In this document: positions 5,011-42,562 of the stretch, piece by piece
Position numbering within the stretch: position 1 is the first letter of the stretch
Layout: every line of letters starts with the position of its first letter
DNA from: Saccharofermentans sp.
GTDB taxonomy: Bacteria; Bacillota; Clostridia; Saccharofermentanales; Saccharofermentanaceae
DNA length: 64,000 nt
NCBI GenBank assembly: GCA_024403695.1
Contig: JAKSRI010000006.1
Coordinates: 5,488-69,487 of the forward strand
Direction of reading: 5' to 3'
Program-made: the position numbers and the translations under genes
Notes under the pieces: model-generated
Databases searched by the model: none
What the model was told of the DNA's origin: nothing
Seen by the model: the letters and a program-made list of their open reading frames with translations, nothing else

Positions 5011-6192
5011 TTAATGGTGGAAGAGTCTGATACCTGTGAATGCCATAGCGAGGCCAAGGTCATCACAAGCCTTAATAACGAGGTCATCTCTTACAGATCC
5101 ACCTGGCTGAGCGATGTATCTAGCACCACTTCTGTAACCTCTCTCGATGTTATCAGAGAATGGGAAGAAAGCATCAGAACCAAGAGCTACGTCAGTGAGC
5201 TGATCAAGCCAAGCTCTCTTCTTCTCAGCTGTAAAGACTTCTGGCTTTGTTGTAAAGATGTTCTGCCACTTACCCTCAGCGAGTACGTCCATGTAATCCT
5301 CACCGATGTAGAGGTCGATAGAATTATCTCTGTCAGCTCTCTTAATATCCTCACGGAATGGGAGATTAAGAACTTCTGGAGACTGACGGAGCCACCAGTT
5401 ATCTGCCTTAGAACCAGCAAGACGTGTGCAGTGGATTCTGGACTGCTGACCAGCACCAATACCGATTGCCTGACCATCCTTTACGTAGCATACAGAGTTG
5501 GACTGTGTGTACTTAAGAGTGATAAGAGAAATGATAAGGTCTCTCTTAGCCTGCTCTGGGAAATTCTTGTTAGCTGTTGGAATGTTCTCGAAGAGCTTAT
5601 CGTCGATAACGAGCTCGTTTCTACCCTGCTCGAAAGTAACACCAAATACTTCCTTGTGCTCGAGTGGAGCTGGAACGTAATTAGGGTCAATCTTGATGAT
5701 AGCGTAGTTACCCTTCTTCTTTGTCTTAAGGATCTCAAGTGCCTCTGGCTCATAATCAGGAGCAATAACACCATCAGAAACCTCACGCTGAATCATCTTA
5801 GCTGTGCATACATCAACCTTATCAGAAAGGGATATAAAATCACCAAAGGAAGACATTCTATCTGCACCACGAGCACGAGCGTATGCGCAAGCAAGTGGAG
5901 AAAGCTCACCGAGGTCATCTACCCAGTAAATCTTCTTAAGAACATCTGAAAGAGGCTGTCCTACAGCTGCACCAGCTGGAGAAACGTGCTTAAAAGATGT
6001 TGCTGCTGGGAGACCAGTAGCTGCCTTAAGCTCTTTTACAAGCTGCCAACCATTGAAAGCATCAAGAAGGTTGATGTAACCTGGCTTACCATTAAGAACC
6101 TCGATAGGAAGCTCAGAACCGTCATTCATGTAAACTCTGGATGGCTTCTGGTTAGGATTGCATCCATACTTTAACTGCATTTCGTTAGACAT
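5011..6192 (-). CDS. purH: Monofunctional AICAR formyltransferase (PurH transformylase domain only)
   Basis: LKYGCNPNQ, SFKHVSPAG, KYTQSNSV, GAGQQSRIHC, SDAFFPF, QPGGS, RLFHH. No N-terminal MGS/cyclohydrolase domain. Confidence 0.92.
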   Translation of the reverse strand: MSNEMQLKYGCNPNQKPSRVYMNDGSELPIEVLNGKPGYINLLDAFNGWQLVKELKAATGLPAATSFKHVSPAGAAVGQPLSDVLKKIYWVDDLGELSPLACAYARARGADRMSSFGDFISLSDKVDVCTAKMIQREVSDGVIAPDYEPEALEILKTKKKGNYAIIKIDPNYVPAPLEHKEVFGVTFEQGRNELVIDDKLFENIPTANKNFPEQAKRDLIISLITLKYTQSNSVCYVKDGQAIGIGAGQQSRIHCTRLAGSKADNWWLRQSPEVLNLPFREDIKRADRDNSIDLYIGEDYMDVLAEGKWQNIFTTKPEVFTAEKKRAWLDQLTDVALGSDAFFPFSDNIERGYRSGARYIAQPGGSVRDDLVIKACDDLGLAMAFTGIRLFHH

Positions 6193-34972: not shown

Positions 34973-36175
34973 ATGTTGAAAAAGAAAACACTTGCATTAT
35001 TTTTGTCATTTACACTTTTATTAGGTGTTACTTCTTGTAAGAAAGAAGAGGATTCTACTCCAAAAATGGTAGAAACAGTAGCAACTGTAGCTACAACAGA
35101 AACTACAGAGGCAGTTCCTGAGACTTCAGAGACTGAGCCTGCACCAGTAGAGCTTGAAGATCCACTTTACGATCCTTCCATTCCTTTTCTTGTAAACCCT
35201 ATGACAGGTGTACAGGATATGGACCCAGCTAACGAAGGTAATCGTTCTGTTGGTGTTGTAATTAATAACTGTGCAGCTGCACTTCCACAGAGAGGTGTAT
35301 CACAGGCTGATGCAATTTACGAGTATGAGACAGAGGGTGGTCAGACAAGACTTCTCGCTATGTTTGCAGATGTAAATTCCATCCCAGAGATGGGTTCCCT
35401 CAGATCAGCACGTATTGTTGCTTCTGATTTGTGCGCTAGTACAAACTCCATCTTCATCCATTACGGACGTAATGCACGAGTTCCTGATCATATCGCTAAG
35501 TATGGCATCGATCACATCGATGGTAACAACTGCTCTGCTGGCTCTTATAGTTCTAAGAACTATGAAGATGGTTACGTACCTCTTAGTGGTGGTCTTTTCT
35601 TCTGGAGAGATTCAACATGGCTTTCACAGAGAGCTCTCGAGCATACAGCTGTATCAGACGGACGTCATATCGCTGAGGGTATCGAGCATTATGGAATCGA
35701 TCTTAAGGGTGAGTCACCATTCCTCTTCAACTTTGTAGCAGATAATTCTATTGATATCGCCGAGCGTGGTGAGCCATGCAGCAAGATTAATGTATACTTC
35801 TCTGCAACTAATGATGATGCGCTCTTCACTTATGACCCTGAAACAAACCTTTACTACAAGTCACAGTATGAGGGTAAGGCTCAGATTGATGAGACAACTG
35901 GTGAGCAGATTGCTGTAACTAACGTTGTAGTTCTTTTCTGTCACGTTCTTAGAAACGCTGATGGTTATACACTTGATTACTACTTGCAGGATGGCACAGG
36001 AGCACTCTATATCAGTAATGGTAAGCTCGTTCAGTGCACTTACGAGAAGAAGAATCCTAATGATCCTATAAAGCTTTATAACCTTGATGGTGAGGAAATT
36101 GAAGTAAACCGTGGTAAGAGTTATATCTGTGCTGTTAACAGTGATAGAGTTCACCTTACTACTTGGGAAGGTTAA
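34973..36175 (+). CDS. DUF3048 family lipoprotein
   Basis: Lipobox VTSC, PQRGVSQADAIYEYETEGGQTR, GSLRSAR, TNVVVL, NRGKSYI. Confidence 0.85.
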   Translation: MLKKKTLALFLSFTLLLGVTSCKKEEDSTPKMVETVATVATTETTEAVPETSETEPAPVELEDPLYDPSIPFLVNPMTGVQDMDPANEGNRSVGVVINNCAAALPQRGVSQADAIYEYETEGGQTRLLAMFADVNSIPEMGSLRSARIVASDLCASTNSIFIHYGRNARVPDHIAKYGIDHIDGNNCSAGSYSSKNYEDGYVPLSGGLFFWRDSTWLSQRALEHTAVSDGRHIAEGIEHYGIDLKGESPFLFNFVADNSIDIAERGEPCSKINVYFSATNDDALFTYDPETNLYYKSQYEGKAQIDETTGEQIAVTNVVVLFCHVLRNADGYTLDYYLQDGTGALYISNGKLVQCTYEKKNPNDPIKLYNLDGEEIEVNRGKSYICAVNSDRVHLTTWEG

Positions 36176-36177
36176 TC

Positions 36178-36251
36178 GCTTACTAACCAATTTGCTTCTG
36201 TCCTCCGCGCTTCGCTTGTGCGTAAGTCCGCAAATTAGTTAGGTGCGCTAT
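36178..36251 (+). repeat. 74-bp palindromic element, copy 1
   Basis: 72/74 identical to the reverse complement of 38655-38728; internal 13-bp stem 36183-36195 / 36230-36242 with one mismatch. Confidence 0.95.
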
Positions 36252-36313
36252 ATAGTAGTGCGGAGGTCGCAAAATTAAAACATAATGTTCTTAGGAATAT
36301 ATAATGTTCACAT

Positions 36314-36349
36314 AAAAAGCTCCTGAATATAACGTTCAGGAGCTCTTTT
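36314..36349. terminator. Bidirectional terminator between convergent genes
   Basis: AAAAAGCTCCTGAA-7nt-TTCAGGAGCT-CTTTT. Confidence 0.85.
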
Positions 36350-36372
36350 ATTAGTTAATTTTTAATAACTAC

Positions 36373-38523
36373 TTAAAATGCGATAATTCCAAATCGTTCA
36401 CATATACCTACAAATTCTGGTGACTTAACGAATCCGTTGAATACCTGTAATCTGGAAGCTCCATCATCAAGAGCCTTAACCCAATCATTAAAGCCTGCTG
36501 GATCTGGTTCACGATCCATGAAAGTTCTGTACAAACGAGTTACATATTCTTTGTTATCTAATTCCTTGCCTGTAAACTCTGGTGAGAAAAAGAAACCATA
36601 TGCTACCTTCTCACCTGTCGCAGAACCTTCCCTGAGAGCACTTGCCCATTCTGACTTTCCTTTAGGATCAGAACTTCTTCCAAGAGCAATTGTGTAAAGT
36701 CTCTCGCAGAAGCCCTCAACACCAGTCTCAGGAGTTGGTGTTGGTTTAGCTACAGGTGGAATAAATACCTGAGCCTTAATAATTAACTTACAAACAGAGC
36801 AATGAATTCCCTCTGTATAACCGCCCTTTGTATCAGTAGCAGGAATCGCAATATCGATTACTTCAGTGTGTCCCTTAGCAGGAATTACTTCCTTATCCTG
36901 TAAAATCAATTCACACCTATCACACTTAACGCCTGCTTTGAGTCCGTCTTCTGTACAGGTTGCGTCTTTTGATTCCCCATATGGAACTTCATTATGACCT
37001 AATGCAGGAAGAGGCATATTAGGATAACCAACATATCCACATATAGAGCAAATCTTTGAACCTGTATTTCCTAGATTTGTACATGTAGGCTTTGTGCCCT
37101 CAGATTCAATATAAACGTGTCCAGTAGCAGGAATTATTTCTCCCCAAAAGCTAACCTCATTACATCTAGTACAAATAATTCTATAGTTATAACCGTCATC
37201 CATACATGTTGGTTCTTTATTTACAACAGAACCACTATGACCGATAGGAGGAATTATATCCCCTTCGTAAAGAACTTCATTACATCTTTCACAGATGGTA
37301 CGATTACGAAGGCCTGTTTCAACACATCCAGGATATGTCATTGGTTCAACGAATTCCAAATGTCCGATAGCGGGGATGCTTGTTCCAGGACGAAGCATTT
37401 TATTACAATCCAAACAATACGTTGAATTTAACCTACCTCTCTCTGTACATGTTGGAGGTATAGTAGGAGGTGTATATGGATTATGTGTATAGTTATATGT
37501 GATATTTAAATTTGCTTCTAGACATACAGTGATAGCTTCACTCTGCTCAAAAATACAACGACCATTAATAACAAGATCTTTATTTAATGGGATACTATCA
37601 TCACCAAGAATTTTTAATGAAGATGGTAAATTTAATACTGTAAATGAATCACATCCAGCAAAAGCCAAATCGCCAATTGTCGTAACAGAATCTGGCACAT
37701 TTATAGAAGGTAATTTTCCACAATTCTCAAACGCACCAGTCTCGATACTCTCTAGAGTAATTGGCAAAGTAATTTTACGCAAACTCGTAAAATCACTGAA
37801 TGCATAATTACCAATAGACTTAACTCCATAAGGAATGAAAACGTTACTAACTGTAGTCTTAATAAAATCAGGAAAATTACATCCATCAATCTTGTTAAAA
37901 TTCTCATCATATCTGTCAGCAATATCACCACTACCAACTAATACAACAGAATCGTACTTACCATCTCTATTAGCATCTCTTGCTGTGTATTTGATGTTAG
38001 AACCATATTTTCCACTATAATCAGAAGTAAAAAAAACACCAGTATATTGACTATACATATCTACTGAAACAGGTGAATCACCACTAATAAATAATTTTCT
38101 ATTAGCAGCATTATTTACAAATGCACCTTCACCTACAATCTCTACTGAATCAGGGATAGAAACTTTTTTAACATTAACAGCATCATAAAGGAAATAGCAG
38201 CCAACAGAAGTTACACCGTCATCAATAACTACTTCTTCAATACTAGCTATTACATCATCGGAAATATAATCACAACGATCAACATAATCAGAACACTCTG
38301 GAGAGTTAAAGTCATACATGTTACCCAGGCCCTGAACATGAAGAACATCATAAACAGCATCTCCATCAATATCTGTGGCAATATAAATTAAATCTTCTCC
38401 AATTTCACCTTTAATAATAGCTTCCGTGTCAGCATTAATCTGATTACCACCAGCAATTAATGCAACACCAGTAACTGTAGAAATTAATACACCAGCTAAT
38501 ATACGAATTGTACGATTAATCAT
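36373..38523 (-). CDS. Secreted BspA-type LRR protein with six Cys/His repeats and a DUF4214 anchor
   Basis: Signal peptide, LRR_5 repeats (IPDSVTTIG..AF), GH..PTCT..G..CxxC repeats, ERLY..LGR..D..G...W modules. Confidence 0.85.
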   Translation of the reverse strand: MINRTIRILAGVLISTVTGVALIAGGNQINADTEAIIKGEIGEDLIYIATDIDGDAVYDVLHVQGLGNMYDFNSPECSDYVDRCDYISDDVIASIEEVVIDDGVTSVGCYFLYDAVNVKKVSIPDSVEIVGEGAFVNNAANRKLFISGDSPVSVDMYSQYTGVFFTSDYSGKYGSNIKYTARDANRDGKYDSVVLVGSGDIADRYDENFNKIDGCNFPDFIKTTVSNVFIPYGVKSIGNYAFSDFTSLRKITLPITLESIETGAFENCGKLPSINVPDSVTTIGDLAFAGCDSFTVLNLPSSLKILGDDSIPLNKDLVINGRCIFEQSEAITVCLEANLNITYNYTHNPYTPPTIPPTCTERGRLNSTYCLDCNKMLRPGTSIPAIGHLEFVEPMTYPGCVETGLRNRTICERCNEVLYEGDIIPPIGHSGSVVNKEPTCMDDGYNYRIICTRCNEVSFWGEIIPATGHVYIESEGTKPTCTNLGNTGSKICSICGYVGYPNMPLPALGHNEVPYGESKDATCTEDGLKAGVKCDRCELILQDKEVIPAKGHTEVIDIAIPATDTKGGYTEGIHCSVCKLIIKAQVFIPPVAKPTPTPETGVEGFCERLYTIALGRSSDPKGKSEWASALREGSATGEKVAYGFFFSPEFTGKELDNKEYVTRLYRTFMDREPDPAGFNDWVKALDDGASRLQVFNGFVKSPEFVGICERFGIIAF

Positions 38524-38613
38524 AAATACTCCCCAATACAGAAAAATCTATTTTAATTATAAATCATATAGAAGCCACTATTTATTAATAAAAAGTAAAA
38601 GAAATCTGACCAC

Positions 38614-38649
38614 AAAAAATCTCGAGCCGTCGAATGACGACCCGAGATT
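38614..38649 (-). terminator. Terminator after the 1280-aa surface protein gene
   Basis: Minus strand ATCTCGGGTCGTC-ATTC-GACGGCTCGAGAT-TTTTT. Confidence 0.85.
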
Positions 38650-38654
38650 ATTAA

Positions 38655-38728
38655 ATAGCGCACCTAACTAATTTGCGGACTTACGCACAAGCGAAGCGCG
38701 GAGGACTGAAGCAAATTAGTTAGTAAGC
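38655..38728 (-). repeat. 74-bp palindromic element, copy 2 (inverted relative to copy 1)
   Basis: Perfect 13-bp stem CTAACTAATTTGC (38664-38676) / GCAAATTAGTTAG (38711-38723); overlaps the stop codon of the 38720-42562 gene. Confidence 0.95.
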
Positions 38729-41700
38729 AATAATTCCTGCCTTCTCACAAATTGCAACAAACTCAGGAGACTTAACAAATCCGTTGAATACCTGCTCACG
38801 TGAAGCACCATCTTCCTTCATTGCGTTTACCCATGCCTGGAATCCTGCTGCATCTGGTTCACGATCCATAAATGTGAGGTACAAACGTCTTACAAACTCT
38901 TCGTCTGTATGATTAGCAAGCTCGAACTCCTTGGAGAAGAAGAATCCATGTGCAACACTGGAACCTGTTCCCTCCTTGTTAGCGAGTGCTTTCGCCCACG
39001 CTGCCTTACCATCAGGATCTGCATTTCTACCGAGACATGTTGTATAGAGTCTCTCTGTGAAATCGAGGATAGGCTGTGTTGGATTTACTACTGGCTTTGG
39101 CTCTGTAGGAGTAGCGGATCCACCAGACTTAATACCATATTTCTGACAGATATTAGCCCACTCAATGGAGTTAATAAATCCTGCAAATACCTGCTCACGA
39201 GTAGCGCCACCCTTAAGTGCCTTTACCCAAGCTGCAACACCATCCGGGTCACCAGGTCTATCCATGAATGTTCTATAGAGACGATCTACATACTCGTCAT
39301 CAGAAAGATTCTTGTTAGTGAACTCTGGTGAGAAGAAGAAGCCATTAGCAACCTTTGCTCCATCAGCAGCTCCATCCTTAAGTGCCTTTACCCAGTCAGC
39401 CTTACCTGTTGGATCAGAAGTACGTCCGAGACATACAGTATAAAGTCTCTCTACGAAGCCCTCTACTCCACCTTCTTCACCTGGTGTAGGTACTGGAGCT
39501 GTAGGTGGGATATACTGCTGTGCCTTAATAATTGTATTACATACAGAACAATGGATACCCTCTGTGTAACCTGGAGTTGTTGATGTAGCTGGTACAGCTG
39601 GATCGATAACTTCTGTATGACCCTTAGCTGGAATAGACTTCTCAGCAACAATTACATATCCACAAACAGAACACTTTGTTCCTGTTGCAGAACCAGGAGT
39701 TGTACATGTTGCTTCCTTATTTACACCTGTTGTAACAGGAGTATGGTTAGTAGCAGGAATAGTTGTTGAGTATGTCTTTACATCGTGACAATTTGAACAC
39801 CATACACTCTCAGTATGTCCTACAGTAGTACATGTTGGAGCCTGATATGGAATATTCACAACATAATTATGACCTGTAGGAGCAATATACATATTTGGAC
39901 TAGTTACAAGGTTACACTTTGTACATCTTGTTACTCCAGTGAAACCATTATCAGTACATGTAGGAGCAATGTAACCAGTTGTAACTTCGTTATGGCCAGT
40001 TGCCTTAACTACTGTTCCAGCATCAAACAAATAATCACCACGTGAACATACATATCTACCTGTATATCCATCTTCTGTACATGTTGCCTCTTTATCTCCA
40101 GAAACAATATCATGGCCAAGCTTAGGAATTACAGTTGCATCTGCAAGTTTCTCATTACATCTGCTACATACAACGTCACCTGATGAACCGTCCTTAGTAC
40201 ATGTAGGAGCAATTACATTAGGTGTTGATGCACTATGACCAAGAGCTGGACCAATAACACCTGGATCAATAAGAATTCCACAATCAGAGCACTGAATTCT
40301 ATTCTTAATTGTACCCTTTGTACATGTAGGTTCCTGATTAATTACTTCCTTAGTATGACCCTTCGCAGGAATTGCAAAACCAGTATGGAAAACTGTATCA
40401 CACTTATCACAAATTACTTTACCTGTGAAGCCATCTTCAGTACATGTAGGTTCCTTCTCACCAACAGTAATAATATTATGGCTAAGAGCTGGAATTACAG
40501 TACCTGGATTTATAACTTCACCGCACTTAGAACATACTGTCTTGCCCTTAAGGCCAGCAACTGTACATGTAGCAGCTCTATCTGGTACAGCAACAGGATT
40601 GTGAGAACATACAATTTCTCTTACGTGTCCACAATAATTACATGTAGTATCTTCTGGATTATCGTAAACATGATTATCTCCAGTAGATCTACTATAGCCA
40701 CAGATCTCACAATTATTAGTACATACATATTTATAAACATGAGTTGAATGACTTGGAGCAGGGTTAGATACACCTTCGGTGTAGATATAAAGATTAGTAT
40801 TTTCAGTGATTATATCATTATCAAAATCAAACTTAATTTTATACTGTGAGTCTCTGTATACTTCCAACCTCTTAAGGTTCTCGTCAACAAGGTAGGATAA
40901 ATATCCTCCAACAGATACATATACTGTTTTTCTTAATTTGCTAGCTGTCTCATAATAATTTACTCTACAAAACTTTGTTCCTTCTGGAGCAAAAATATAG
41001 GCACTGGATTCATCATCAAACTTGGCACCAGTAAGATCATAATCAAATATATTACCCTTTGAATCATAATATTTTACAGATACGTTATCTGAAGCATCTT
41101 TTACATTAAATTTTACTAAACCAAATCCACGTACATCCTTAGCGTTCAGATTAGGAATATCAAACGTTCCACCATAAATGCTAAATTTTTCAAAAGACTG
41201 ATTGCTATTCTCAACAGTTATATGTCCGCTATCTATAACACTAATTTCATTTGAGAGTTCACCCTGATATCCTGCACCAATTGCGTCACATGTATAAATA
41301 CTATTATAAGAAGAACCTGCGAATGCTGTAACTGTATTGTTTGAAAATACCATTTGGGACATCAGTTTTCCGTGAGAAGCTGTACCAATACCAGCTCCAG
41401 GATAATACTGACCAAGACTATTACCACCACCAACAGCATAAATTGTGTTGTTATAGAAAATCATACTTCCAATGACATTACCACCAATACCAGCACCACT
41501 TTCCTGAGTCACAAAACCTTGACCTGCTAATGACTGGATATCAGAAGATTGAATATTAATAGAATTGCAAGTTGGTAAATTTTTAGGTGATGAATTATAT
41601 TTATATCCTCCAGTTCCAATACCTGATGCAGAACTTGAATATGCAACCAAAGAAGATGCATCACCACCCTTGGCATAAATCAATGACATATAAATATTAA

Positions 41701-42562
41701 TACCACTAATACTACTATCATCATTTATATCTGTTTTACAGCCACCACCAATACCGGCTCCGTAATAACCTCCATAAACTCTTCCACTACACTTATCTAG
41801 TCTAATTGATTTAACACTAGAATTTAGGCCTCCACCAATTCCAGCTCCATTATTTCCACCGTGTACATTAACAAACTGACAATCATCAAAAGTAATTGTA
41901 TTAACAGAAGATCCTGAGCTACAACCAATTGCTGCAGCATTATCTCCACCATCTGCATTAATAAAAAGATTACGGATATCAATGAAAAAAGCTTTTCCAT
42001 TTACAGCAGGGCCAATGCCAGCTCCATCTTTACCACCAGTTACAGATAATTCTGCTGCATTAACACCTATAACTTTCACATAAGTATTTGGATTTTCAAT
42101 CTGAATTGCAGCACTACCAATACCAGCAGTAAATGAAACATCACCAATGATATTAATAGTTACATATCTTGATTTATTCTTTTCACTGATAACAACACAA
42201 GGTGGTCCATCATATCTATCATTCTCATTAGAAACACTAATATTCTGGAATTCAACAATAAGATTAGAACCATCTCCATAACTTGAACATTCAAAGTTAA
42301 ATGTAACATCCTTAAATACTTTATTAACATCACCATAAAAACGAATGTTATCTTTTACAGTGATTACTCGAGTCGTAGGATCATAAGAATAATAATCATT
42401 ATCAATCTTTTTACCAAGCGACAAAATATTGTCTACATTAGCTGTAGCTGCTACATCAGCAACAACATCTTTCTGCGACAAACCAGAAAGACCCAATATT
42501 GCTATTGAGGCAACAATAATGAATGCCATAAAAAATGACACAAAGCGCGAAGCCTTACGCAT
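38720..42562 (-). CDS. Large secreted surface protein: Gly-rich beta-helix-like passenger, nine Cys/His repeats, two DUF4214 modules
   Basis: Signal peptide, repeated GAGIG(G) motifs, approx. 40-aa H..TCT..G..CxxC repeats, tandem ERLY..LGR modules. Confidence 0.85.
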   Translation of the reverse strand: MRKASRFVSFFMAFIIVASIAILGLSGLSQKDVVADVAATANVDNILSLGKKIDNDYYSYDPTTRVITVKDNIRFYGDVNKVFKDVTFNFECSSYGDGSNLIVEFQNISVSNENDRYDGPPCVVISEKNKSRYVTINIIGDVSFTAGIGSAAIQIENPNTYVKVIGVNAAELSVTGGKDGAGIGPAVNGKAFFIDIRNLFINADGGDNAAAIGCSSGSSVNTITFDDCQFVNVHGGNNGAGIGGGLNSSVKSIRLDKCSGRVYGGYYGAGIGGGCKTDINDDSSISGINIYMSLIYAKGGDASSLVAYSSSASGIGTGGYKYNSSPKNLPTCNSINIQSSDIQSLAGQGFVTQESGAGIGGNVIGSMIFYNNTIYAVGGGNSLGQYYPGAGIGTASHGKLMSQMVFSNNTVTAFAGSSYNSIYTCDAIGAGYQGELSNEISVIDSGHITVENSNQSFEKFSIYGGTFDIPNLNAKDVRGFGLVKFNVKDASDNVSVKYYDSKGNIFDYDLTGAKFDDESSAYIFAPEGTKFCRVNYYETASKLRKTVYVSVGGYLSYLVDENLKRLEVYRDSQYKIKFDFDNDIITENTNLYIYTEGVSNPAPSHSTHVYKYVCTNNCEICGYSRSTGDNHVYDNPEDTTCNYCGHVREIVCSHNPVAVPDRAATCTVAGLKGKTVCSKCGEVINPGTVIPALSHNIITVGEKEPTCTEDGFTGKVICDKCDTVFHTGFAIPAKGHTKEVINQEPTCTKGTIKNRIQCSDCGILIDPGVIGPALGHSASTPNVIAPTCTKDGSSGDVVCSRCNEKLADATVIPKLGHDIVSGDKEATCTEDGYTGRYVCSRGDYLFDAGTVVKATGHNEVTTGYIAPTCTDNGFTGVTRCTKCNLVTSPNMYIAPTGHNYVVNIPYQAPTCTTVGHTESVWCSNCHDVKTYSTTIPATNHTPVTTGVNKEATCTTPGSATGTKCSVCGYVIVAEKSIPAKGHTEVIDPAVPATSTTPGYTEGIHCSVCNTIIKAQQYIPPTAPVPTPGEEGGVEGFVERLYTVCLGRTSDPTGKADWVKALKDGAADGAKVANGFFFSPEFTNKNLSDDEYVDRLYRTFMDRPGDPDGVAAWVKALKGGATREQVFAGFINSIEWANICQKYGIKSGGSATPTEPKPVVNPTQPILDFTERLYTTCLGRNADPDGKAAWAKALANKEGTGSSVAHGFFFSKEFELANHTDEEFVRRLYLTFMDREPDAAGFQAWVNAMKEDGASREQVFNGFVKSPEFVAICEKAGIIAY

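Follow-up and report, generated by a model that had tools for sequence, protein, structure and literature searches.

Within a 64,000-nucleotide stretch of a Saccharofermentans sp. genome (hereafter, the window; positions 5488–69487 of contig C44 in genome G000, an assembly of 2.43 Mb in 47 contigs), a 74-bp palindromic element occurs twice in inverted orientation, at the ends of two oppositely oriented genes. Both are members of a family of hairpin-forming repeats, apparently undescribed, in Saccharofermentans-like rumen and gut Clostridia. With moderate confidence, we take the 74-mer to be a subfamily that is young and specific to this genome, within a family of extragenic palindromic hairpins restricted to the lineage. 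The family is similar to the repetitive extragenic palindromic (REP) elements, propagates rarely, and probably serves as a hairpin at the 3′ ends of genes. In what follows, contigs are labeled C and extracted loci L, each with a number, and G042 is the closest relative of G000.

The two copies, at 36178–36251 on the forward strand and 38655–38728 on the reverse strand, are identical at 72 of 74 positions, as the sequence-only reading of this region had reported. The mismatches lie at 36188 and 36199, and the pair contains a run of 52 nt without mismatch; a repeat finder extends the homology to 83 nt (36175–36257 and 38649–38731, 94% identity). A BLAST search of the 2.43-Mb genome with the 74-mer yields an E-value of ~1e-31, so the similarity of the copies is not a matter of chance. 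Each copy does lie between a stop codon and an intrinsic terminator (terminator-like hairpins at 36318–36344, forward strand, and 38649–38618, reverse strand), and the whole LRR-DUF4214 gene is bracketed between them, its open reading frame (ORF) at 36373..38523 on the reverse strand. Two parts of the same description hold for one copy each. Copy 1 directly follows a stop codon, whereas the stop codon associated with copy 2 is inside the element (GCT TAC TAA, 38722–38720). A 13-bp outer stem (CTAACTAATTTGC/GCAAATTAGTTAG) encloses the central hairpin of copy 2, whereas the arms of copy 1 have a C-A mismatch and its minimum-energy fold is a different one. Between 36196 and 36283, copy 1 has two mutually exclusive folds, the 74-mer hairpin or a structure in which the 5′ half of the core pairs with a second, orphan right half at 36258–36290 (GTGCGGAGGTCGCAAAATT); the latter is the minimum-energy fold.

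The sequence-only reading had considered that only these two copies might exist. BLAST against the genome instead recovers five near-identical full copies (two on C44 and one each on C2, C6, and C37), half copies, and other members of the family. With a relaxed pattern and a covariance model, 14–16 relatives are found in G000, about 10 of them besides the five near-identical copies; these share GTCCTCCGCGC-x-GCTTGTGCG(G/T)A, and their enclosing stems vary by locus. Beyond this genome, public species genomes contain the exact 23-mer GTCCTCCGCGCTTCGCTTGTGCG at more than 117 loci. Almost all of these carry the label Saccharofermentans sp., ‘Ruminococcaceae bacterium’ (isolates YRB3002 and YAD3003 among them), or unclassified Clostridia represented by metagenome-assembled genomes (MAGs) from rumen, horse, and deer. 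A degenerate core pattern matches 77 of 301 genomes of the order, in 2 of its 51 genera, and the reversed pattern, used as a control in the same 301 genomes, gives no hits. The pattern occurs in ~60% of the genomes of the window's genus, at 1–12 copies per genome, and is sparse in one sister genus; one genome, G006, carries 13 copies of the element. When the covariance model was applied across the class, matches were confined to 1 of 216 genera, with none in the ~215 other Clostridia genera sampled. No Rfam family overlaps the elements in cmscan searches of the window at gathering thresholds, of 36100–38800 at E ≤ 10, or of the 13 G006 loci at E ≤ 5. The core string was not found in the literature searched, nor was anything relevant on palindromic repeats of Saccharofermentans. 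Many of the 109–125 instances that underlie the counts below are orthologous across species, and thus non-independent, and ORFs were called by a simple script.

What members of the family share is the apex of the hairpin. The core has the form GTCCTCCGCGC-(loop or paired extension)-GCTTGTGCGGA and folds into a CCGC/GCGG helix, an invariant UUGU bulge on the 3′ side, a GC/GC helix, and then the extension. About 35 nt of it are almost invariant, (A/G)GUCCU-CCGC-GC-(3-nt loop or any paired extension)-GC-UUGU-GCGG-AA, and these top a stem of 13–25 bp whose sequence is specific to the locus. In an alignment anchored on the core, conservation extends from about −9 to +26 (CTCGCTWAG-GTCCTCCGCGCTTCGCTTGTGCGGAA, followed by the weaker TCGCTCGC), and the outer flanks contain no sequence information. 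Between GCGC and GCTTGT lies either a loop of 3 nt (TTC, TGC, TAC, TCC, TTT, and others) or a paired extension, of which there are at least 17 distinct, perfectly complementary kinds (GGAC/GTCC, GAAC/GTTC, AAAC/GTTT, GTGC/GCAC, GAGC/GCTC, GGG/CCC, ATTGC/GCAAT, ATG/CAT, and others). These extensions fix the pairing scheme of the core. The arms also match within a locus, with a mean duplex energy of −22.4 kcal/mol vs −10.2 kcal/mol when arms are combined across loci.

As a DNA palindrome, the element is asymmetric. Both arms contain CTCGC in direct orientation (75 occurrences on the left and 57 on the right), and GCGAG is found 9 and 13 times, respectively; this arrangement produces a TC/TC internal loop on the sense strand, equivalent to tandem GA/GA on the other strand. 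Roughly one fifth of the copies have common termini, GAGTRA (at −24) and TYACTC (at +26). Nested and half copies occur, as do tandem arrays of 50–80-nt units in several genomes. The arrays comprise 3–4 hairpin units with periods of 50, 57, or ~80 nt (L086, 6011–6147; L090, 3014–3136; L282, G042:C69:14465–14754; L279, G042:C2:7627–7722); since their units are near-identical, including the ‘spacers’, they are local duplications, unlike arrays of the type formed by clustered regularly interspaced short palindromic repeats (CRISPR).

The elements are placed at the ends of genes, predominantly in the sense orientation. Once the ORF calls had been cleaned, 77 of 109 cores had the end of a same-strand gene as their nearest 5′ feature. 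In 55 cases a sense stop codon lies within 45 nt on the 5′ side of the core, and in 9 an antisense stop lies within 45 nt on the 3′ side. Where two genes converge, the element is nearer to the sense stop in 22 of 27 pairs and to the antisense stop in 5 (p = 0.0015). Distances from stop to core peak at 17–20 and 27–29 nt, and in 48 of 83 cases the stop codon falls inside the predicted enclosing stem, with 7 more within 10 nt of it. The stops are mixed (42 TAA, 19 TGA, 2 TAG) and the reading frame into the core is not constant, which makes a signal for readthrough or of the selenocysteine insertion sequence (SECIS) type unlikely. Other candidate identities (a T-arm mimic, a K-turn, group II intron domain V, hairpin ribozyme loop A, and CRISPR or ToxI-like arrays) were dropped because defining nucleotides or context are missing. 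For most copies, identity with an intrinsic terminator was likewise rejected: the outer stem is followed by its own T tail in 5 of 121 elements, the elements usually precede a separate terminator, which is found within 150 nt for about a quarter of them, and both copies in the window have separate terminators downstream. In some copies, such as L043, L029, L024, and L011, the element forms the ‘loop’ of a bona fide terminator with A tract, GC stem, and T tract. A second repeated sequence, AAGCCTGTTTGGGGGCTCCAG, lies ~40–60 nt upstream of the core in L011, L029, L126, and L127, before terminator-type copies in several genomes, and may represent another repeat family.

The genes that precede the element are functionally unrelated and often have housekeeping roles (groEL, purH, purF, guaA, pfl, pfk, relA, RNase J, rubrerythrin, trpA, murD, and glnS); inspection of the translated C-terminal regions, carried out without a Pfam run, revealed no shared function. 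Two copies stand immediately behind tRNA genes. The tRNA loci concerned are in G000 (C1:~138600–138790), in G006 (L231, 310–470, contig C1), and in G042 (L277, contig C3).

Gains, replacements, and deletions of copies are all seen over the time scale at which species diverge. Among 30 species with a trpA orthologue, the element is present only in G000 and G042, whose TrpA proteins share 93% identity; the arms of the two differ at five positions, each compensated on the opposite arm, including positions inside the last codons. Only G000 has the element behind murD, and its MurD ends in ...NELE* vs ...NEL* in the closest relatives, the final GAG TAA being the first six bases of the arm. The DUF3048 orthologues of 23 species are followed by plain spacers and terminators, and the element is absent. 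Loss is exemplified by a filled and an empty site, G000 C1:−183577 and its counterpart on G042:C48, which differ by exactly 66 nt, with the first bases of the left arm retained in G042. At the orthologous tRNA trailer of G042, a T-tailed terminator keeps the co-varied arms and the T tract and has lost the core. One element, 53 nt long, shows 100% identity between G000 and G042, against 75–84% for the flanking coding sequences. The element is also kept in several species after purH, purF, guaA, relA, and RNase J genes.

The stop codon of rubrerythrin records repeated change at one site. It is empty in 24 of 30 close species, in which the coding sequence is 82–93% identical; the remaining 6 have arms of three types, the first in three species, the second in one, together with an orphan right half, and the third, with a variant core, in one, all with junctions within 0–3 nt of the stop. 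Arms have been replaced at a single locus between species with 93% identical coding sequence. The rubrerythrin 3′ untranslated region (UTR) as a whole (L243–L272, 30 species) is a mosaic, in which different types of terminator and different hairpin elements have been exchanged between species with 90–95% identical coding sequence.

The history of the 74-mer can be followed within G000 itself. A G-to-T variant of the core, GTGCGTAAGTCC, is restricted to G000 among the copies examined and is found in seven of them: the trpA copy, the copy at C1:18316, and all five 74-mers. The inner arms of the 74-mer, TAATTTGC/GCAAATTA, are common to the trpA copy, and the sole match to the 74-mer left-arm pattern in species genomes is the trpA copy of G042. 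Copy 1 stands behind a non-paralogous gene and carries DUF4214 codons: the ATC GCT TAC TAA that follows the genuine DUF3048 stop is what remains of the final codons of a DUF4214 gene. Copy 1 and the copies on C2 and C37 are each accompanied by an additional right half that resembles the one in the C25 element, and C37 has a terminator in common with C25. Copy 2 and the C6 copy resemble ordinary paralogous 3′ ends, with DUF4214 coding sequence and terminators in common. Long arms are shared within one genome by the 74-mer group, by C1:−183577 and C44:81470, and by a group in G006. At the G042 orthologue of the C25 locus (L278, contig C15), whose gene we take, from its sequence, to encode a PaaK-like CoA ligase, the family element is absent and a different hairpin, AGGTCTGCGGAGGTTTCTGCGGACCT, comes right after the stop; it may be a diverged or opposite-strand relative of the family.

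According to the interpretation that we favor, the element would be transcribed within the 3′ UTR and fold as a long hairpin that acts like a REP, as a 3′-end barrier or stabilizer protecting or shaping the end of the upstream mRNA, and the terminating ribosome would partly melt it. The sequence-only reading had proposed a structured 3′-UTR motif, and the placement, the sense bias, and the paired, co-varying extensions and arms support this; a test based on wobble pairs gave no strand signal. Rare propagation could proceed by recombination or template switching at hairpins, with no dedicated transposase, and the complementarity of the arms would be kept by selection for pairing, by intrastrand template-switch correction, or by both. 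The inverted arrangement in the window is a simple by-product, since two oppositely oriented genes each have a copy in the sense orientation.

Several observations weigh against this interpretation. In the wobble-pair test, G-U pairs in the arms number 133 on the sense strand and 149 on the antisense strand, a result that fits templating at the DNA level at least as well as selection on RNA. The sense bias is weak (9 vs 5) at loci whose genes are mostly oriented against the element, and may therefore include a replication-strand component. Copy number is far below that of classical REPs. The core is nearly identical across species with 60–75% protein identity, which points to a sequence-specific partner; a simple hairpin barrier would not require one. 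Repeated insertion within 0–3 nt of one stop codon suggests targeting over random recombination.

The lack of a G-U excess on the sense strand and the repeated hits on the same stop codon keep alive an alternative that we regard as possible, though on the whole unlikely. The element could be a selfish miniature DNA module without RNA function, consisting of a core of ~35–45 nt and a variable stretch of stem, mobilized in trans by an enzyme that acts on single-stranded or hairpin DNA; it would prefer gene-end hairpins (stop-proximal palindromes and terminator loops) and be tolerated there because it folds on itself. Such a module would accommodate the three arm types at one stop codon in close species, the copies lodged in terminator loops, the tRNA-trailer terminator of G042 with arms and no core, the nested copies, half copies, and tandem arrays, and the 53-nt element that is better conserved than its flanks. 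Yet no candidate enzyme was found, as Y1/RAYT genes (REP-associated tyrosine transposases) do not track the element and IS200-like loci lack a similar hairpin, and neither a target duplication nor a conserved target word is apparent. Copy number is very low (≤ ~14), the element has been retained across species at several loci, and because copies in one genome can share long arms, the mobile unit is not the core alone. We are more doubtful still of a specific form of mobility, in which the core would be the recognition module of a new miniature mobile element that homes to gene 3′ ends (stop-proximal or terminator hairpins and tRNA trailers) by means of a host- or element-encoded enzyme, or that spreads by fold-back or template-switch synthesis with arms re-templated from the local flank. 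Homing or re-templating would explain why an identical core is combined with self-complementary arms specific to each locus, and why one stop codon has been hit repeatedly.

At the opposite extreme stands a purely cis-acting 3′-UTR RNA motif, either a protein-binding hairpin or one that pairs with the Shine-Dalgarno sequence, which would be vertically inherited, immobile, and copied through gene duplication only. A cis motif would account for the invariant core, the fixed UUGU bulge, the strand-specific TC/TC internal loop created by direct CTCGC on both arms, the co-variation of stems and extensions, and a 5′ half that carries an anti-Shine-Dalgarno-like CCUCC, as well as for persistence after the purH, purF, guaA, relA, and RNase J genes and for the paralogous ends of copy 2 and C6, which are what gene duplication predicts. 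Strict immobility is nevertheless improbable in view of the DUF4214 codon relic in copy 1 behind a non-paralogous gene, the scattered, lineage-specific presence of the element after murD, trpA, DUF3048, and rubrerythrin, and the replacement of arms at one locus between species with 93% identical coding sequence; in addition, the host genes lack a common function and Rfam offers no match.

Links to known transposases were suggested by the first description of the pair, which noted that the stem begins after TTAC, the target of IS608-type HUH enzymes, and proposed a non-autonomous element of the REP, PATE (palindrome-associated transposable element), or MITE (miniature inverted-repeat transposable element) kind. 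The behavior of such an element is indeed observed, in that the repeat is present in multiple copies outside genes, relatives have empty sites, and copies have been transferred between loci within the genome, and the reported absence of a target duplication stands, as no direct repeats flank the five young copies. The connection to IS608, TTAC, and HUH enzymes, however, falls away, and it is very unlikely that the element is an IS200/IS605-type PATE or a RAYT-mobilized REP inserted 3′ of TTAC, despite its imperfect, bulged hairpin. TTAC is found in 14 of 123 left flanks, at chance level and without a fixed position, and in the 74-mer it belongs to the DUF4214 codons GCT TAC TAA; GTAG at the foot of the hairpin occurs in 9 of 123 left flanks, also at chance level and with no positional signal. 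Among genomes of the genus, Y1_Tnp (PF01797) is encoded by 4 of the 14 with the core and 3 of the 11 without it; G006, with its 13 copies, has none. At C17:3757–4919, G000 has a tandem duplication of a RAYT-like Y1 (IS200-like) transposase ORF (131 aa, truncated, and 209 aa), beside a ComM/YifB-like gene, with no core nearby; the covariance model detects no core-like hairpin at the IS200-like loci of relatives. The element is a single hairpin, without the distinct left and right end hairpins of a PATE that match a resident insertion sequence (IS), and it lacks the conserved terminal inverted repeats and target duplication of a MITE, its arms being locus-specific with GAGTRA/TYACTC shared by ~20% of copies. 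As a short, imperfect, extragenic, multi-copy palindrome it does agree with a REP, though its copy number is low for one. Sequences resembling attC boxes (GTTAGGT, which fits GTTRRRY) are confined to the 74-mer subfamily, and the genes that host the family are housekeeping genes unrelated to one another and oriented either way. Least credible of all is that the two inverted copies are recombination sites for inverting or exchanging the 2.4-kb LRR-DUF4214 segment. A perfect inverted stretch of 52 nt bracketing a complete surface-protein gene is long enough for rare RecA-dependent inversion, but no recombinase or invertase gene is encoded within ±8 kb of the pair (neighbors include ComEC, RqcH, an SH3 protein, DUF308, DUF218, CoaE, and PolA), the same element follows many unrelated single genes that have no partner copy, and inversion would leave the logic of expression unchanged because the LRR-DUF4214 gene keeps its own promoter and terminator.

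Coordinates of the features at and around the pair are collected in Table 1. G042 has no locus syntenic with the window, an exact-protein look-up of the LRR-DUF4214 product found it in no other assembly, and metagenome scans with the DUF3048 3′ end and with the 74-mer left arm returned 0 hits each. The C-termini of the DUF4214 paralogues are near-identical (in the window, 36373–36384 and 38720–38731), reading ...GIIAY* in three genes, ...GIQPY* on C37, and ...IIAF* in the LRR gene. Among these paralogues the element is 94–97% identical, and the neighboring coding DNA, as judged by eye, is clearly more diverged.

Table 1. Element copies, terminators, and genes at the inverted pair (window coordinates)
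Feature	Position	Strand	Details
Copy 1, 83-nt homology	36175..36257	+	74-mer part 36178–36251; opens with ATC GCT TAC TAA
Copy 1 outer stem, 5′ arm CTAACCAATTTGC	36183..36195	+	One C-A mismatch to the 3′ arm
Copy 1 family core, GTCCTCCGCGC-TTC-GCTTGTGCGTAAGTCC	36200..36229	+	Genome-specific G-to-T variant of GCGGAAG
Copy 1 outer stem, 3′ arm GCAAATTAGTTAG	36230..36242	+	
Orphan second right half of the core element, GTGCGGAGGTCGCAAAATTAAAACATAATG...	36258..36290	+	Common to the C2, C37, and C25 loci; able to pair with the 5′ half of copy 1
Terminator-like hairpin and T tail	36318..36344	+	Downstream of copy 1
Copy 2, 83-nt homology	38649..38731	−	74-mer 38728–38655; core 38706–38677; arms 38723–38711 and 38676–38664
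Terminator-like hairpin and T tail	38618..38649	−	Downstream of copy 2
DUF3048-family gene	34973..36175	+	ORF list; Pfam DUF3048 N- and C-terminal domains; stop TAA 36173–36175 immediately 5′ of copy 1
LRR_5 and DUF4214 surface-protein gene between the copies	36373..38523	−	ORF list, Pfam; own 3′ end without the element
Large DUF4214 (x4) gene	38720..42562	−	ORF list, Pfam; stop TAA 38722–38720 inside the 5′ arm region of copy 2

If our interpretation holds, the family would offer a clean, low-copy model of palindromic elements that colonize the ends of genes in Gram-positive anaerobes. Its members are unusual in architecture, with a conserved apex, a variable base, and stop codons embedded in the stem, and gain, replacement, and loss are visible at single sites defined to the nucleotide. 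It would also provide a testable case for distinguishing host-serving hairpins (mRNA 3′-end protection, or coupling to translation termination) from tolerated parasites of terminator-like hairpins, and for asking what keeps a 35-nt sequence invariant across a genus. In practical terms, an unannotated motif that alters the C-termini and stop codons of real genes could confuse 3′-end annotation in rumen MAGs.

Among known systems, the REPs and bacterial interspersed mosaic elements (BIMEs) of Enterobacteria and Pseudomonas, together with REPINs (REP doublets forming hairpins), share with this family short imperfect palindromes that are extragenic, multi-copy, lineage-specific, and found in clusters or arrays. 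They are typically located just after stop codons inside transcripts, upstream of or between terminators, a placement that the present elements probably share, and REPs are thought to stabilize upstream mRNA. The present family differs in having 1–14 copies per genome vs hundreds, no GTAG head, and no associated RAYT, and in a conserved apical core on a locus-specific basal stem that often contains the stop codon. MITEs such as Correia of Neisseria, RUP (repeat unit of pneumococcus) and BOX of pneumococcus, and ERIC (enterobacterial repetitive intergenic consensus) are likewise non-coding, hairpin-forming, and sporadic among relatives, and can overlap gene ends, supply stop codons, and act on transcript ends. 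They conserve their ends and vary in the middle, whereas this family does the opposite, with no family-wide terminal inverted repeats, no target-site duplication, and no parent IS. Integron attC sites are also folded hairpins that overlap the stop codon of the ORF before them or start at it, with extrahelical or bulged bases, a variable terminal structure, and a fixed orientation to the gene, and the 74-mer holds GTTAGGT. However, attC conserves the basal R and L boxes and varies in the center, GTTRRRY is absent from the rest of the family, and the hosts here are housekeeping genes with their own promoters rather than co-oriented cassette arrays. In the DNA uptake sequences found in terminators (DUS of Neisseria and uptake signal sequences, USS, of Haemophilus), a short conserved sequence and a partial inverse form a gene-end hairpin; the copies described here are far too few for an uptake signal, and their conserved part is the apex of a longer hairpin, mostly without a T tail. 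Finally, the mycobacterial interspersed repetitive units (MIRUs) of Mycobacterium are, like these elements, small, situated at gene junctions, co-oriented with genes, and able to overlap stop codons, but they are tandem direct repeats encoding small ORFs, not hairpins with a conserved apex.

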